From assembly GCA_035474135.1 (NCBI GenBank), contig DATINP010000033.1, forward strand, positions 2,334-66,333: a DNA stretch of 64,000 nt. Direction: 5' to 3'. Positions 34,026-39,046 of this stretch are shown in pieces. Position 1 is the first letter of the stretch, and every line of letters starts with the position of its first letter. The stretch comes from Chloroflexia bacterium (GTDB taxonomy: Bacteria; Chloroflexota; Chloroflexia; QHBQ01; JADMIH01). The notes under the pieces are model-generated. The model saw nothing but the letters and a program-made list of their open reading frames with translations, did not search any database and was not told where the DNA came from. The position numbers and the translations under genes were made by a program.

Positions 34026-36479
34026 ATGATGAGCAGATTTACAGAAAAAGCGCAGGAAGCCTTGCAGCAGGCGCAGAAGATCATGTTCTCCAAGCAGCAC
34101 ACGCAGCTTGACGTAGAACACGTCTTCCTGGCCCTCCTGCAGCAGCGACAATCAGTGCCGGCGCAGATAATCTCGCGCCTCGGCGGCGATGTGCAGGCGA
34201 TAACGCGCCAGTTGGAGAGCCAGCTTAACGCGACCGCTAACTTCGCAACCTCGGCCCGGGGCAGCGCCACCGGTTACATAACCCTGCGAGCCAACCGCGT
34301 ACTGACAGGCGCGGCAGAGGAAGCAGACCGTCTCAACGACGAGTTTATCTCCGTTGAGCACCTCCTTCTCGCCATCGCAGATGAGCGGGGCGGAGCTACA
34401 GGCCGCATCTTGATGCAGGCCGATATAGACAAAGAGAAGATATACGCAGTTCTGCGTGAGATCAGGGGCGACCGCCGAGTAACGGACCAGAACCCGGAGG
34501 AGCACTACGAAGCCCTCGAACGCTTTACAGTGGACCTCACCAAGCTGGCCCGCGAAGGCCAACTTGACCCCGTGATTGGCCGCGCCGACGAGATCCAGCG
34601 CGTAATGCAAGTGCTCGTGCGCCGCACCAAGAACAACCCTGTTCTTATTGGCGAGCCGGGCGTAGGCAAGACCGCCATCGCCGAAGGATTGGCCCAGGCC
34701 ATCGCCGCAGACGCGGTGCCCGACCTGCTCAGGGGCAAGAGAGTGCTCGCGCTCGACCTGCCCGCGATGGTAGCAGGCTCGAAGTTTCGAGGTGAGTTCG
34801 AAGAGCGGCTCAAGACCGTGATGGAAGAGATCAAGCGCGCCCGCAAAGAGATCATCCTCTTTATAGATGAGCTTCATACCGTAGTCGGTGCGGGAGCAGC
34901 AGAAGGCGCCCTCGATGCAGCCAACATACTCAAGCCCGCCCTGGCGCGTGGCGAGTTGCAGTGCATCGGTGCGACCACGCTGAACGAGTACCGCAAGATC
35001 GAGAAGGACCAGGCATTGGAGCGGCGTTTCGCACCCGTCTTCGTCGAGCAGCCCTCTGTTGAGGACTCAATCGAGATCCTGCGCGGCCTCAAGCCCCGTT
35101 ACGAAGAGCATCACAACCTGCGCATCACTGACGAAGCAGTGCAAGCAGCAGTACGGCTATCCAGCCGGTATATACAGGACCGCTTCTTGCCCGACAAGGC
35201 GATTGACTTGATGGACGAGGCGGCTTCTAAGGTGCGCCTGGCTGTGTTCAACCTGCCAACGGACCTGCGCGAAAGCCAGCAGAAGTTGGAAGAACTCCAA
35301 AAGCAAGAGGAAGAAGCAGCCAGCAAGCAGGACTACCAGCATGCTGCCGCCCTCAAGCAGGAACGCATCCAGATGCAAGAAGAGTTTGACGCCAAGCGGC
35401 ACGAGTGGTTCACCACGCACAACATCGACGAGAGCGTGGATGAAGAAGACGTGGCCGACGTGGTAGCCAAGTGGACAGGCGTGCCTGTTCAGCGCATGGT
35501 ACAGGAAGAAATGTCTCGCCTGCTCGAAATGGAAGCCGAGCTTAAGAAGCGCGTCGTTGGGCAGGAAGAAGCTATCGAAGCGGTATCGGACGCCATCAGG
35601 CGTGCCCGCTCGGGTCTCCGCGACCCGCGCCGCCCGATAGGCTCATTCATCTTCGTTGGCCCCACGGGTGTAGGCAAGACCGAGCTTGCAAAGGCCCTGG
35701 CCGAGTACATGTTCGGCTCTGAGGACGCCATCGTGCGCGTAGACATGAGTGAGTACGGCGAGCGGCACACAGTCGCCCGTATGATCGGCTCGCCTCCTGG
35801 CTACGTCGGTTACGATGAGGGCGGCCAGCTAACCGAGTCGGTGCGGCGCAGACCCTACCAGGTGGTGCTGTTCGACGAGATCGAAAAGGCTCACCCCGAA
35901 GTGTTCAACTCGCTCCTGCAAGTGCTGGATGATGGGCGTCTCACGGACGGCCATGGCCGCACGGTGGACTTCAGTAACACGCTGATCATCATGACCTCGA
36001 ACGTCGGTACAGAGTTCCTGCCCAAGCAAGCCAACTTCGGCTTCTTGCCCAAGGGCTACAACGAAACCGACCAGAGAGAAGTGCAGAAGCGGGTTGACGA
36101 AGCGCTGAGAAACACCTTCCGGCCCGAGTTCCTCAACCGCATTGACGATATTATCGTCTTCCGACACCTGACGTTGGAAGAACTGACACGGATCGTGGAC
36201 ATCCAGGCCGCCGAACTGGCCAGCAGGCTTGCCTTCACAGGCATCGGCCTCGAACTGGAGCAGGCTGTCAAGGAGCACCTCGCCGAGATCGGCTACGACC
36301 GCAACTTCGGTGCGCGCCCACTCAAGAGGGCCATCCAGCGCGAACTGGAAACCCCTCTGAGCAAGCGTCTGCTGAAAGGCGACGTGAAGACGGGCGACAC
36401 GATCACCGCAGGCTATACTCCCGAAGAAGGCACAACCTTCGCCGTAGAGAAGACAGCCGAGGTAGGTGTAGGGGCATAA
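34026..36479 (+). CDS. clpB: ATP-dependent chaperone ClpB
   Basis: N-domain, AAA-1 Walker [16 protein letters not shown], long coiled-coil M-domain, AAA-2 Walker [16 protein letters not shown], sensor-2 region; 817 aa. Confidence 0.95.
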
Positions 36480-36480
36480 C

Positions 36481-36554
36481 ATAGCGCAACTCGGCTAAGA
36501 AGTAAGGTGTAGTCAGTTGCGACTACACCTTACTTCTTAGCCGAGTTGCGCTAT
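36481..36554. repeat. perfect palindrome: two 34-bp arms separated by a 6-nt loop (AGTTGC), immediately after the clpB stop
   Basis: ATAGCGCAACTCGGCTAAGAAGTAAGGTGTAGTC ... GACTACACCTTACTTCTTAGCCGAGTTGCGCTAT; reverse-complement checked by hand. Confidence 0.9.
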
Positions 36555-36715
36555 AGGGGTTGACAAATAGGGCATAAGCTGGTAAATAATAACTTAAAAC
36601 AAGTCTGCCGAATCTAACGATGGCTTTCGGTTGTCGATCATTAGCTTCATGCATTCTCTATGAGCAGATTGTTTGGAACTTAGAGAGGATCAGTTTGCTG
36701 GGAAGGAGCTTCGTG

Positions 36716-38046
36716 ATGGGAAAACTAATGCAAACAGGCGGGCTGCTAGCCATGATGGTAATTATGCTCAGTATCAATATCTCCTCTGTGCGGGCTTCTC
36801 AAGCTATCAATAAGCACGAAGTGCCATTGTCACTATGTTCAGGCTTCAGTGATGTGCAGGATACCGACTTTTTCTGCCATTTTCTGACAGTTATGGTAAA
36901 CAATGGAGATATCACCGGTTATCCAGATGGAACGTTTCGCCCTATAACGGGGTCACTAGAGGTGAGTTCTCCAAAATACTGATTGAGGGATTCGATCTCT
37001 GTTGCAACACCAGTGGAGGGCCACATTTCGCTGATGTTCCAGTGGGATCCACTTTCTATAATTGGATAGAGACAGCCTACAACAGGGGAGTCATCACCGG
37101 TTACAGTGACATGGGACATTGTGGTACACAGATACCATGTTTTTTGCCAGGTGCCAACCTTACACGCCAGCAAATGGCTAAGATGATCGCTATAACTGCT
37201 GGCTTTGGTGAATCCACAACGGGTAGGCCAGCCAGTTACTATGATATGACTAGCGGAAACACCTTCTTTTCTTATGTTGAGAACCTGGTAATGCACGCTG
37301 TGGCAAATCCGTTTGCTGCTTCCAATCCTCCCTACTGCCCATCATCCACCCAACCCTGTTTCTATCCTGGTGAAAATGCAACTCGCGCCGATATAGTAGC
37401 AAATGTTATGAACGCTCACCTGTCTAACGGCTACGGTCAGGTATTCGCAGCGAAAAGTGGAACATACACTGGTGTATCGGTTTATATTACAACTCCTGAT
37501 AATCCGGTCTCTGGTGTGCAGTTTATTGATGCACCTGTTGGTATGACCACCAAGACTAACGGGAAATTTATAGAATCAGGTCCAACAAAGGACTGCATTC
37601 CAAACTGCGGGAGTGGTTACTTATACCTGCATCCTTATGGGAGTTGGGGCAATTGGTATAGCGGTGGTCAGGATATCCTTAGAACTGTCTATCTCGCTTC
37701 AGGGGGTAGGTACGGATACAAGACAATCTATTTTGGCGGATCGGGTGGGCAGTGGCAGTCACAATATTGTGATGCGACTGGCTGCCGGGGAATTGTTTCA
37801 TCAGGCGACCTTGGAACAACCCTTCCGTATGTAGCAACAGGCGTCGAAGCCAACGCTAGAAACGTAAGCGTTGGACCGGTAACCTCATCCTATGCACAGT
37901 ACTTTTTGAACGGATCATGGTTCTACTGGTGCTATGACCCAACATTGCCACCCTGGAAGACAGCGTACCCTCCTAGCGGAATCAAGGGTAGTATTGGTTC
38001 ATGTAGCACTTATGACTATAGTTGGACAATTACCAACACTCCTTAG
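36716..38046 (+). pseudogene. secreted SLH-domain (three SLH-like repeats) protein, reading frame broken by a +1 shift at a G4 run (36949-36952)
   Basis: signal peptide MGKLMQTGGLLAMMVIMLSINISSVRASQA; SLH repeat 1 ...GDITGYPDGTFRP in frame 2 ends at 36982, and its expected continuation VTRGEFSKIL is read in frame 1 and merges into ORF 37042-38046 (SLH repeats 2-3 plus a Cys/Gly/Tyr-rich C-terminal domain). Confidence 0.55.
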
Positions 38047-38055
38047 GAGAAAACC

Positions 38056-38787
38056 ATGAGAACACACGGGAATTCCCATCAGTGGCGTAAATGGACCGCA
38101 ATTTTGATTGTTGGTGGCCTAACAATTAGCATGGCTCTCATCTATCTGTCCCTTACCTCGACTAAAGGCGGCAATCTTTCCGCTATTATGCCTGACACAC
38201 AAGGAGCCAATTTCCATTATGGTACCGAGAGTCTAGTTGGAGCTTCTCCAGATGAGGTAGGGCAGTATGCTTTAGAGTATGTACAACACCACCTTGAAGT
38301 AAGCGGTGAGCCTCAGGTTGTGCTTGCACGGTTTATCACGCAAGCAGAACGACCTTCGCTTGGGCTCGGCTGCCCACAAGCGAAGTTGACAATAGAAGAT
38401 CCACCAGAGATTCTAGTCATTCTTAGTGGCGACTTCGATGTAAGCAAAGCGATCAGCGGGTTGGCAACCAAACCACCTTGGCACTTCAAGTACGTAGCGT
38501 ACATCTTTGATCTGTGGTCTGCAAGTCATACAACATTTATTTACTCCCGGAATGGCGCCCAATTCAGGACTGCTCTAAACGATCCGACTATCCCATCAGA
38601 TGGCCCTAATGCAGAAGCTTCTCCTATCTGCCCCACGCCACTGCCAGATCAGGTTCTACTGCATTATGGGGATATTGCTCCCACAATTCAGATTCCTGAA
38701 GGACCGGCTGTGGGAAGTCCGACACCAGTATCTCCAATACCATCAGAGATCGTTCCCCCTCCATTACCTACATACGGATCAAAATAA
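38056..38787 (+). CDS. hypothetical membrane-anchored protein (islet gene)
   Basis: 243 aa; N-terminal TM (WTAILIVGGLTISMALIYLSL), Pro-rich C-terminus; lower GC than surroundings. Confidence 0.4.
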   Translation: MRTHGNSHQWRKWTAILIVGGLTISMALIYLSLTSTKGGNLSAIMPDTQGANFHYGTESLVGASPDEVGQYALEYVQHHLEVSGEPQVVLARFITQAERPSLGLGCPQAKLTIEDPPEILVILSGDFDVSKAISGLATKPPWHFKYVAYIFDLWSASHTTFIYSRNGAQFRTALNDPTIPSDGPNAEASPICPTPLPDQVLLHYGDIAPTIQIPEGPAVGSPTPVSPIPSEIVPPPLPTYGSK

Positions 38788-38951
38788 ATCCTAAAACGAC
38801 AGGACACAGTATAGCGCGCCCATCGTTGAATAATGAGCAATGTGACCAAGCCTTAGCAGGGCTACTGTGGCTATATTCTTCGAACTCTTGCCTGCTGCAC
38901 CCACTACAACGTATCAAGCGTGGGGCCGTTCACCACGATGCACTCAGATTT

Positions 38952-39046
38952 AGCAAGCGTCTGCTGAAAGGCAACGTGAAGACGGGCGACACGATCACCG
39001 CAGGCTATACTCCCGAAGAAGGCACAACCTTCGCCGTAGAGAAGAC
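38952..39046 (+). repeat. 95-bp duplicate of the clpB 3' coding end (direct repeat of 36360-36454, 94/95 identical)
   Basis: hand alignment of the two sequences; creates the chimeric ORF 38826-39077 ending ...[31 protein letters not shown]. Confidence 0.9.

Follow-up and report, generated by a model that had tools for sequence, protein, structure and literature searches.

A displaced clpC 3' end beside an AT-richer surface-protein cassette in Chloroflexia, probably left by recombination without a dedicated recombinase

The clpC locus and its insert

The window, which is the whole 64,000-nucleotide stretch of DNA analysed here, contains a dnaJ-hspR(MerR)-clp cluster whose third gene encodes an Hsp100 chaperone. 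The 3' end of this gene is present twice, and between the two copies lies an islet of 2,497 bp (36455-38951). The features of the locus are, in order:

34026-36479, plus strand: clpC-like gene for an Hsp100 AAA+ chaperone of 817 aa (Pfam Clp_N, AAA, AAA_lid_9, AAA_2, ClpB_D2-small)
36360-36454, plus strand: R1, repeat copy 1, encoding 31 residues and two bases of the next T codon; part of the functional clpC
36455-36479, plus strand: tail 1, the last base of the T codon followed by AEVGVGA and the stop (TAEVGVGA*); compared below with the tails of L002 and L014
36481-36554, no strand assigned: perfect palindrome with 34-nt arms and a 6-nt loop, starting 1 nt past the clpC stop
36560-36588, plus strand: promoter-like TTGACA-N17-TAAATA upstream of the SLH gene, as read from the sequence
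36716-38046, plus strand: SLH-domain surface-protein gene (Pfam SLH), now a pseudogene because 1 nt is missing from the C run 36940-36942
38056-38787, plus strand: hyp243, 243 aa, with an N-terminal membrane anchor, a small alpha+beta domain and a Pro-rich tail; homologues 41-59% identical
38788-38951, plus strand: 164-nt spacer between hyp243 and R2, its right edge a non-homologous junction
38952-39046, plus strand: R2, repeat copy 2, a displaced remnant of the original clpC 3' end with a D-to-N change at a conserved residue
39047-39077, plus strand: tail 2, the last base of the T codon followed by ETEEVSIKA and the stop (TETEEVSIKA*)
39098-39133, plus strand: native clpC terminator-like hairpin, orthologous to the hairpin after L001 clpC and now downstream of the cassette

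A preliminary description of this DNA had named the chaperone gene clpB. The product is ClpC-like instead: it has 817 residues and a short middle domain, falls under the NCBIfam ClpB equivalog cut-off (1095 against 1232) as well as the ClpA equivalog cut-off, and is 94% identical to its orthologue at L001. Other parts of that description have held up. The AT-richness of the islet is now a quantitative drop in the GC profile, to 0.475 (47.5%), where the window as a whole averages 0.576 and clpC and the flanking genes about 0.60; the palindrome is indeed perfect, and the frameshift in the SLH gene is the 1-nt deletion listed above, which L081 shares. What had been counted as two hypothetical genes is one, since the 334-aa open reading frame is the downstream part of the broken SLH gene. 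Once corrected, the SLH product is 443 aa long; it contains SLH repeats, carries a signal peptide and has a C-terminal domain rich in Cys. It aligns over 97-99% of its length with P0009/P0010 (442/458 aa) at 45-54% identity, and other homologues, of 430-473 aa, cover 84-98% of it. The SLH gene is dead, while its conserved partner hyp243 is probably still expressed. An AF2 model of the hyp243 product gives a TM helix at residues 7-33 and a core with pLDDT 70-90; no significant fold match was found in the PDB, and neither a Pfam nor an NCBIfam match. In every lineage the cassette is low in GC (SLH gene 0.47-0.50, hyp243 gene 0.47-0.48, neighbouring core genes 0.52-0.62), so that its composition, being a trait of the cassette itself, is no proof of recent foreign origin.

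The palindrome folds at -65 kcal/mol (z = -13.5), is single-copy in the window and, of all fetched loci, is found only at L081. Hairpins of about 13-16 bp occupy its position at L087 and L089, and relatives have their clpC intrinsic-terminator hairpins there; the palindrome, which has no T tract, is probably a clpC terminator or 3' stabiliser. The putative promoter that follows sits at the same position as TTGACA-N18-TATAAT at L087; a consensus promoter scan, which demands T at position 6 of the -10 hexamer, did not call it.

An independent Logan unitig (L081, from SRR9656163) is 100% identical to 36525-39003, so the islet, the frameshift and the junction between islet and copy 2 are not artefacts of one assembler. 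It is true that the window comes from a metagenome-assembled genome and that a 95-nt repeat is shorter than a read, so one contig might have been threaded together from strain variants that were assembled jointly, or from the chromosome and a free circle of 2.6 kb that has the repeat in common with it. We consider this extremely improbable: the islet and the islet/R2 junction, A variant included, are both found in the unitig, which appears to end exactly at the points where unitigs of k=31 have to break, at the palindrome and past the mismatch. Moreover, isolate L057 has the same architecture, as does the L004 species in each of four independent assemblies, and a one-base difference between the copies means that two copies exist.

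Two copies of the clpC end, two tails

R1 and R2 form a direct repeat of 95 nt, identical at 94 of 95 positions and spaced by 2592 nt, exactly as described before. The sole mismatch, G36381 against A38973, falls in a conserved residue that is D (GAC) in R1 and N in R2. Outside both ends of the repeat, identity drops at once to the background level of 20-37%; in the spacer 38788-38951 no clpC similarity is detectable, its approximately 32% identity to clpC upstream of R1 being background. No other dispersed direct repeat of such size exists in the 64-kb window, which excludes a chance origin. The repeat does lie near the end of the coding sequence; it is not, as had been stated, the last 95 bp, since 25 nt follow copy 1 and 31 nt follow copy 2. 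The left boundary in the window and that at L008 lie at the same SKRLL codon to within about 1 nt, which fits identity by descent but could also reflect a preferred site.

A repeat of about 95 nt at a gene's 3' end, with a single mismatch that reads A downstream and G in the gene, calls to mind a diversity-generating retroelement, with R2 in the role of template repeat and R1 in that of variable repeat. This candidate is effectively refuted: there is no reverse transcriptase in the islet or within about 10 kb, just one position differs, and the differences at L084 are not restricted to adenines.

The tails that follow the repeats are unrelated to each other (z = -2.2); both conform to the clade pattern V-(G/S)-(V/I)-(E/G/K)-A-stop. 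Tail 1 resembles the tail AATVGVEA* of L002 (z = 3.0) and TVSVEA* of L014; it is a genuine homologous ClpC tail. It arrived with the cassette, and the last eight clpC codons including the stop are not ancestral at the locus. Tail 2 and the DNA beyond it align with the clpC tail and downstream region of L001 (z = 7.6), and we take it to be the ancestral ClpC tail of the locus. Indeed, R2 together with tail 2, its hairpin and the DNA beyond is orthologous to the single clpC end of L001, the closest relative, which has no islet; L002, L003 and L014, likewise among the closest relatives, lack the islet too. Since neither a conspecific genome with an empty site nor a donor was found, it is this orthology that suggests insertion in the lineage of the window, as opposed to loss in L001.

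The earlier picture of an insertion at the gene's 3' end, with the coding end restored by one repeat copy, is right in its architecture, and the old end has been displaced. The chimeric open reading frame 38826-39077, previously credited with an alternative ClpB-like C-terminus, is best read as this displaced end and not as a gene, because it starts with TTG, has no Shine-Dalgarno-like sequence upstream, and has matching remnants at L008 and L086 that carry 1-nt deletions. For ClpC itself the effect is small: eight instead of ten variable C-terminal residues.

The repeat copies are 99% identical, yet the adjoining tails are just about 50-60% identical. This combination, a point against the displacement proposed below, would require a near-conspecific donor, or an origin of both copies from the recipient, or later gene conversion.

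The same layout in relatives

A search for other copies of the islet genes, as had been suggested, places an SLH and hyp243-type pair behind clpC in at least four other Chloroflexia lineages, and wherever the sequence continues further, what comes next is a leftover of the clpC 3' end belonging to the genome in question. At L004/L082-85 (four independent assemblies), clpC and hyp231 are followed by a 72-nt clpC end, about 86% identical, which reaches the stop codon. At L086, an SLH remnant and hyp226 precede the clpC-end remnant; at L089, L096 and L090, clpC, SLH465 and hyp229 precede about 150 nt of clpC end with stop and terminator, the terminator hairpin being 100% identical; and at L088, SLH451, an IS and hyp245 precede a ClpC-like remnant.

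The layout also occurs with different cargo, from what look like independent events. In another Chloroflexia metagenome-assembled genome (L008) a 253-aa secreted-protein gene takes the place of the pair, and copy 2 is most like the sister genome L010, with which it has a YGVEEG stretch, a PAIV* tail and a similar terminator in common; the tail is also found at L009, and L009, L010 and L036 have the empty site. The isolate Agromyces chromiiresistens (L057) has a repeat of 131 nt at 98.5% identity, and its copy 2, tail and downstream DNA equal the single clp end of the sister species L042, again an empty site. At L056, a 126-nt clp fragment lies 4.2 kb downstream. Differences between copies fall chiefly at third codon positions (7 of 10 at L084; both of the two at L057 synonymous), which implies that the two copies come from two functional alleles and not from decay of a duplicate made in situ. 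The clpC-end event is real and recurrent, and of a known kind.

Recurrence also raises the question of age. Of the two observations that the preliminary description had set against its own reading, one is found and one is not: the arrangement, with its two repeats, is shared by several relatives, whereas GC content along the DNA varies. An order clpC-SLH-hyp243-remnant could have been present in the ancestor of the clade, so that the window's lineage acquired nothing of late, with loss of the cassette in L001-like genomes through recombination of the repeats and recent gene conversion behind the 99% identity. It occurs in all subclades of the ClpC tree, the cassette proteins are 40-59% identical where ClpC is about 80% identical (compatible with long residence), the window, L086 and L084 each show an independent decay of the SLH gene, and pop-out would leave tail 2, the end type of L001; at L084 and L086, moreover, interior repeat sites group by genome and tail sites by paralogue. 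We nevertheless find such vertical descent doubtful, given that repeats of 65-150 nt would need long, sustained conversion, L002 and L014 have tail-1-like ends without a cassette, the hyp243 identities (the window nearer L084/L086 than L090) do not mirror the ClpC tree, and cassette GC stays at about 0.48 in hosts of 0.57-0.60. Even under vertical inheritance, the founding event could still be a displacement by homologous recombination. The site pattern of L084/L086, at five sites only, hints at conversion.

Mobility of the cassette

Outside clpC, the SLH-hyp243 pair also sits in places that lack flanking repeats, such as the interval from nuoJ to nuoK, so it must have at least one other way of moving; elsewhere it has QueG on one side and an EamA transporter on the other, adjoins an IS110 transposase, or lies close to a MobA relaxase/RepB primase. 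Together with a GC content constant at about 0.48, these unrelated surroundings might suggest that the module has a mobility of its own, inserts beside conserved genes and generated the clpC duplication as a long target duplication. This seems very improbable to us. With tail 1 being homologous to other ClpC tails, the left junction stems from homology and not from target duplication; the module copies have no conserved termini or inverted repeats in common; the nuo site is without flanking repeats; both proteins look like envelope proteins, not DNA-acting enzymes; and the same clp architecture exists with other cargo.

Integrase-mediated islands and CIMEs insert in gene 3' ends, with known sites in tRNA, tmRNA, fda, guaA and rlmH. 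The locus resembles them in that an AT-richer insert lies between direct repeats of the target's 3' end and element sequence completes the gene. It would fit a remnant or non-autonomous (CIME-like) site-specific element, with the 95-nt repeats as attL/attR and a tyrosine or serine integrase elsewhere or lost. Such elements are classically recognised by a directly repeated gene 3' end through which the reading frame is restored, the left boundary of the window and L008 agrees within about 1 nt, and the dispersed repeats in 1.6 Mb of clp-centred loci include more than their share of clp 3' ends. Yet the islet holds no integrase, as noted before, and neither integrase, transposase nor reverse transcriptase domains were found in it or within about 10 kb; the equivalent inserts of 6-7 lineages have no integrase either, and none of the three kinds of domain is found in any cargo. 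The extent of the repeat differs among lineages: 95 nt that stop short of the tail, 72 nt that reach the stop, about 150 nt with the terminator, or, in Agromyces, 131 nt (165 nt to the stop codon, with homology on to 223 nt). The inserts are pieces of the ordinary clp-downstream regions of relatives, with different cargo, and no larger element with the same ends was seen. A decayed site-specific element, the leading proposal of the preliminary description, accordingly receives no support, since recombinase domains are lacking at all these places, the cargo pair is habitually linked to clpC, and tail 1 is homologous; we regard it as quite unlikely.

Proposed displacement of the gene end and its known parallels

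What fits best is the fallback of that description, acquisition by homologous recombination, in view of the missing recombinase, the genuine ClpC tail 1 and the linkage of the pair to clpC in relatives. We put at roughly 60% the probability that the islet arose at clpC by a displacement of the gene end for which no recombinase was needed, as argued by a sharply bounded and unique repeat, two real ClpC tails, recurrence, events with other cargo, the lack of a recombinase, and a published mechanism. DNA of a related Chloroflexia member, comprising the 3' part of clpC with its own tail, hairpin and downstream SLH and hyp243 operon, would have recombined into the resident clpC through clpC homology. 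Single crossover of a circle (Campbell-type, insertion-duplication) duplicates the homologous segment, and the most economical route would be one such crossover of a circular intermediate inside the 95-nt segment; alternatively, one end may have been homologous and the other illegitimate. By either route, tail 1 would complete the resident gene, and R2, tail 2 and the native terminator would be pushed 2.6 kb downstream and fall silent. The unit of cassette and repeats may afterwards leave the chromosome as a circle of 2,592 bp when RecA recombines the repeats, which would restore a tail-2 gene, be lost in this manner, or pass to relatives by ordinary homologous recombination, and gene conversion may keep the remnant similar to the live clpC. 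The layout, its recurrence, the orthology of R2 and what follows it to the empty site of L001, the ClpC nature of tail 1 and the lack of recombinase genes are observed; in this scheme, it is the circular intermediate, the RecA dependence, the timing and the donor that we infer.

The closest published parallel is the displacement of C-terminal ends in rhs (and cdiA/polymorphic-toxin) genes, for which homologous recombination via a small circle with a core fragment, a new tip and intervening genes was proposed, the old tip being shunted downstream (Jackson et al. 2009, BMC Genomics 10:584, PMC2935791). At clpC, too, downstream of a conserved gene body comes a fragment that repeats the 3' core on a different tip, the old tip is moved and not deleted, the core fragment's length varies, and exchange is confined to relatives with enough identity. 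Unlike the rhs case, however, the host gene is a housekeeping chaperone and not a toxin, the tips are 8-10 unconstrained residues rather than functional domains, in place of an immunity gene the cargo comprises an SLH surface protein together with a membrane protein, and there is one displaced end, not a string of them.

Experiments on homology-facilitated illegitimate recombination (HFIR) usually yield insertion-deletions. As summarised in PMC3240628, a linear fragment enters with one homologous and one illegitimate end, which as described does not by itself explain a duplication. T6SS effector-immunity arrays were proposed to be built in this way, with effectors inferred to be displaced and immunity genes to be kept (Kirchberger et al. 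2017, PMC5361080). As in these arrays, a conserved upstream gene serves at clpC as the homologous anchor and older material is shifted downstream without an integrase, but here part of the anchor itself is duplicated. The minimal mobile elements of Neisseria are likewise accessory cassettes exchanged at a fixed site purely via homologous recombination of conserved flanks; their flanks are two different genes and no duplication results, whereas at clpC both arms are the end of one gene.

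The islet between two ends of clpC

The 95-nt direct repeat with one mismatch, noted in a preliminary description of this DNA, is real: the two copies are 94/95 identical, the sole difference being G36381 in copy 1 versus A38973 in copy 2. When the copies are compared in register, identity on either side of the block falls at once to 20-37%, the background level, so the edges of the repeat are sharp; an extended comparison found no homology upstream of copy 2 beyond the block, and no other dispersed repeat of comparable size occurs within the 64-kb window. The features of the region are as follows.

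34026-36479 (+), clpC
36360-36454, repeat copy 1, inside clpC
36455-36479, tail 1, the end of clpC after copy 1
36560-36588, TTGACA-N17-TAAATA, putative promoter
36940-36942, C run with a 1-nt deletion, in the SLH surface-protein gene
38056-38787, hyp243, encoding a 243-aa membrane-anchored protein
38826-39077, chimeric ORF
38952-39046, repeat copy 2
39047-39077, tail 2, after copy 2
39098-39133, hairpin

The intervening 2,497 bp are indeed AT-richer than their surroundings, with 47.5% GC versus 57.6% for the window and 60% for clpC. Other stretches with a GC of 0.47-0.53, well under the window mean, lie at 31800-32400, 42000-42400 and 57000-64000; they are mostly short intergenic dips, the final 7 kb being a broad lower-GC region. 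A Gly-rich tandem repeat of GGYNRGG-type units with a period of ~39-42 nt lies in a coding region at 6243-6465.

A Logan unitig (L081, from SRR9656163), which is independent of the window assembly, is 100% identical to 36525-39003. Logan unitigs are built at k=31, and the 95-nt repeat is longer than k. One end of the unitig lies four k-mers inside the right arm of the palindrome, the other 30 nt past the A/G mismatch. Both are obligatory break points at k=31, from which we infer that the reads contain the palindrome, the two repeat variants and the junction between islet and copy 2. The source genome, an NCBI third-party Chloroflexia MAG whose contig here is 70,751 bp long, carries the locus tags VLQ48_01865 and VLQ48_01870.

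Copy 2 as the probable original gene end

The interrupted gene, previously called clpB, is ClpC-like: its product scores 1095 against the ClpB equivalog model TIGR03346, below the cut-off of 1232, and also lies under the NCBIfam ClpA equivalog cut-off. ClpB has a long coiled-coil middle domain; the middle domain of this 817-aa protein is short, with a gap of ~90 aa from AAA_lid_9 to AAA_2. The gene belongs to a dnaJ-hspR(MerR)-clp cluster. Nor does the repeat comprise the very end of the coding sequence, as had been thought, since 25 nt follow copy 1 and 31 nt follow copy 2. Tail 1 reads TAEVGVGA-stop and tail 2 TETEEVSIKA-stop, so that the second copy with its tail repeats the 3' part of clpC with a different, homologous tip. 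Both tails fit the pattern of the clade, V-(G/S)-(V/I)-(E/G/K)-A-stop; tail 1 is therefore a genuine ClpC tail, and a homologous tail after copy 1 is incompatible with a simple target-site duplication.

The nearest relative, L001, has a clpC tail and downstream region that align with tail 2, the hairpin at 39098-39133 and the sequence 3' of it (z = 7.6), while tail 1 does not align with the L001 end and resembles the tails of two further relatives, L002 and L014. This one-sided orthology argues that copy 2 is the original clpC end of this locus and that tail 1 was probably brought by the islet. The displaced native hairpin now lies 3' of the cassette. The chimeric ORF at 38826-39077 is present as described, and would be a fossil of the gene end that starts by chance at a TTG, rather than a new ClpB-like C terminus. 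Remnants in two other genomes (L008 and L086) bear 1-nt deletions. Displaced clp ends call for care, as annotation can mistake a remnant for a small ClpB-like ORF.

When clpC was compared with its relatives by sliding identity, no clear breakpoint of a recombination tract appeared, and an exact-protein look-up of ClpC returned no record. A protein search for a conspecific allele, using the reconstructed empty-site C terminus (ClpC with tail 2), gave a best match of only 82% identity and hence no such allele. A metagenome scan in which a 26-nt pattern from the 3' portion of the repeat served to look for conspecific sites, empty or occupied, gave 0 matches. A 133-aa ClpC fragment (P0130) was considered as an orphan end and rejected, being a fragmented gene at a contig start.

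Cargo genes and signals

The frameshift reported in the SLH gene of the islet is confirmed as the loss of 1 nt from the C run at 36940-36942. A programmed frameshift was rejected, as TTT CGC CCT is not a slippery heptamer, and the gene is presumably dead. The two hypothetical genes counted earlier have to be revised accordingly: ORFs of 120 and 334 aa make up the one broken SLH gene, and hyp243 is the sole other real gene. The corrected 443-aa SLH protein shares 45-54% identity over 97-99% of its length with homologues of 442-458 aa; coverage is 84-98% for other homologues, of 430-473 aa. An exact-protein look-up of the 334-aa ORF returned no record, and that of hyp243 found it in the source MAG and one Logan unitig only. 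Starting 9 nt past the SLH stop, hyp243 seems to have its own ribosome-binding site. Its product has a transmembrane helix at the N terminus, a small domain of the alpha+beta type and a tail rich in proline; searches gave no Pfam, NCBIfam or significant PDB fold match, with a weak NTF2/cystatin-like resemblance only.

The palindrome noted earlier is perfect, with 34-nt arms, and starts one base past the clpC stop. It folds at -65 kcal/mol (z = -13.5), and its arm occurs nowhere else in the window or the fetched loci. Its position is that of the clpC terminator hairpins in the relatives L087 and L089, and it probably terminates or stabilises the clpC transcript. A second perfect palindrome, AT-rich and also with 34-nt arms but with a 47-nt spacer, lies at 50737-50851 and abuts the stop of an ORF at 50851-53004 (-); this genome may habitually end its genes with long perfect hairpins. 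The motif TTGACA-N17-TAAATA matches the consensus promoter of L087 in position and is a putative counterpart; a consensus promoter scan did not call it.

Relatives with and without the cassette

A genome scan for ClpC recovered a clade of soil Chloroflexia MAGs with ClpC identities of 78-94%. In the nearest relatives, L001 (94%) followed by L002, L014 and L003, clpC runs directly into its terminator with no islet. In other lineages, homologues of the SLH protein and of hyp243 (hyp231, hyp226, hyp229 and hyp245) adjoin the 3' side of clpC, and wherever the sequence extends past the hyp gene, a remnant of the genome's own clpC 3' end follows.

Arrangement of the cassette and of the displaced clpC end in other Chloroflexia lineages (locus: gene order; remnant)
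L004/L082-85: clpC-hyp231, heavily eroded SLH remnant between; in L084, 72 nt, to the stop codon, ~86% identical
L086: clpC, SLH C-terminal remnant, hyp226; ~60 nt
L087: dnaJ-merR-clpC-SLH430
L089/L090: clpC-SLH465-hyp229; in L089/L096, ~150 nt with clpC end, stop and terminator, terminator hairpin 100% identical
L088: SLH451, IS, hyp245; decayed, reads RGDTKSGQTVVV...

In L088, the IS at 1756-2591 (DUF4096 and DDE_Tnp_1 ORFs) separates the SLH gene from the hyp243 homologue. Across the cassette genomes, the SLH gene has a GC of 0.47-0.50 and the hyp243 gene 0.47-0.48, versus 0.52-0.62 for neighbouring core genes, so that low GC characterises the cassette and does not date its arrival. Independent decay of the SLH gene is seen in other lineages: L086 (503-868) retains its last ~124 codons only, and L084 (9701-10000) scattered recognisable fragments such as 'GKFIEPGP' between clpC and hyp231. 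The hyp243 gene is intact in all lineages, which points to selection on hyp243 alone. Cassette-bearing lineages are scattered across the ClpC tree and their cassette proteins are 40-59% identical between lineages, which repeated loss or old transfers can explain.

A metagenome scan with a hyp243 alignment found copies of the pair outside clpC. In two rhizosphere contigs (L092, 798-2858; L093, 2495-4555) it sits between nuoJ and nuoK of the NADH dehydrogenase operon, beginning 65 nt past the nuoJ stop, with no flanking repeats and no duplicated nuoJ or nuoK ends. Elsewhere it lies between QueG and an EamA transporter, beside an IS110 transposase, or near a MobA relaxase/RepB primase. No conserved termini are shared by copies in different contexts, and a transposon with recognisable ends was rejected on this ground. 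Taken together, the SLH gene and hyp243 form an accessory envelope module with more than one route of relocation over evolutionary time.

Probable displacement of clp ends with other cargo

The same architecture recurs at clp in at least six lineages; the repeats measure about 60-165 nt and the cargo is of three kinds. In the Chloroflexia genome L008, a gene for a 253-aa secreted protein lies between a full clpC and a ~130-nt copy of the clpC end. Copy 2 is closest to the sister genome L010, with the same YGVEEG stretch, a PAIV-stop tail (shared by L009) and a similar terminator, and copy 1 is nearer to the allele of L036; the site is empty in L009, L010 and L036. The isolate Agromyces chromiiresistens (L057) has a 1.3-kb insert with a 131-nt flanking repeat of 98.5% identity, homology extending through the tail at lower identity; copy 2 and the downstream DNA match the single clp end of the sister species L042. 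The displaced tip is the ancestral one in L008 and L057, as in the window. In L056, a further Agromyces, an additional clp fragment lies 4.2 kb downstream. Dispersed direct repeats in 1.64 Mb of clp-centred loci derive disproportionately often from clp 3' ends, and such ends seem to be a recurrent displacement site in soil Chloroflexia and Agromyces.

After the clp stop, several Agromyces species (L042, L045, L056, and L057 at 12466-14000) have a conserved palindrome, GGTCGAGTAGCG...CGTATCGAGACC.... Within the insert of L057 it turns up again, visible as 'FDTRPTSSGATQPA' repeated in spurious ORFs. The element resembles a REP-like intergenic repeat family.

Element classes and mechanism

The preliminary description favoured a site-specific integrative element, and the 95-nt repeat does flank the insert with target-derived direct repeats as attL and attR would. 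We found no support for this reading. A Pfam search of all islet ORFs and neighbours within ~10 kb found no recombinase gene, nor any transposase or RT domain, and the equivalent inserts of L004, L086, L087, L089, L008 and L057 likewise contain no recombinase, transposase or RT domain. The right edges of the repeats differ in all compared loci, and the left edges differ in L090, L084/L086, L057 and L056. The window and L008 agree at the left edge to ~1 nt. This is the best argument for some site preference, and its simplest explanation is identity by descent, from a single founding event after which cargo was exchanged. A direct repeat of a gene 3' end around an AT-rich islet is, on its own, no evidence of an integrase-driven element.

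Two other classes were rejected. Integron attC sites are imperfect palindromes with a GTTRRRY core, recognised together with an IntI integrase; here IntI is missing, the palindrome is perfect and the adjacent GTTGACA is unlike that core. Against a diversity-generating retroelement speak the lack of RT in the islet and the surrounding ~10 kb, the single difference in the window, and differences in L084 that are not adenine-specific.

Acquisition by homologous recombination, the alternative first offered, is supported by the genuine ClpC tail 1, the ancestral tail 2 and the recurrence at one gene with variable repeat lengths and different cargo. A two-step homologous recombination has been proposed for the displacement of rhs C termini: part of the conserved gene, a new tip and the genes between them travel on a circle that integrates by a single crossover, and the old tip is moved downstream (Jackson et al. 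2009, PMC2935791). The facts from the window and its relatives fit this model, and also a related proposal for T6SS arrays, in which additions are anchored by homology (Kirchberger et al. 2017, PMC5361080). By analogy, a circle bearing a clpC fragment, a new tail and the cargo would insert by a single crossover into clpC, and the old clpC end would be shunted downstream of the inserted cargo. The islet is most likely a new example of a known event, a gene-end displacement or Campbell-type insertion-duplication; the notable part is its recurrence at clp genes and the tie to a conserved surface-protein cassette. A highly conserved housekeeping gene can thereby anchor the addition of downstream genes from relatives, leaving its old end as a fossil, and displaced clp ends are usable as markers of past gene flow.

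The differences between copies fall on third positions in 7/10 cases in L084 and are synonymous in 2/2 in L057, an excess which points to two functional alleles as the source of the copies, not to the decay of a local duplicate. In the window, the repeat is 99% identical while the adjoining tails are merely ~50-60% identical; this calls for a near-conspecific donor, a recipient that supplied both copies, or subsequent gene conversion that stopped at the diverged tails. Recent acquisition, or long residence with conversion, could each have led to this state. In L084/L086, interior sites group by genome and tail sites by paralogue, a weak hint of gene conversion.

A bolder reading, which we consider unlikely, is that the repeat-cassette-repeat unit is a self-targeting mobile cassette free of any recombinase: its two clpC ends would allow excision as a circle, re-insertion, and transfer into any similar clpC with host RecA only. 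If this is true, C-terminal displacement would not be confined to polymorphic toxin genes but would also affect a core chaperone gene, and both the patchy distribution in Chloroflexia and the parallel events in Agromyces would be explained; a truly mobile unit would be a minimal, enzyme-free means of spreading cell-surface genes.

Variation beyond the second clpC end

The segment from the native clpC terminator to the URO-D gene (39180-40804) is variable as well. In the window it holds an FGGY-family sugar kinase gene (~64% GC), which is missing from all fetched relatives; L001 has a gene for a 629-aa protein instead. On the minus strand, 39180-39302 is a 40-aa ORF whose product is similar to the membrane segment at the N terminus of the 629-aa protein (65% over 34 aa); it may have been left behind by an L001-type gene.
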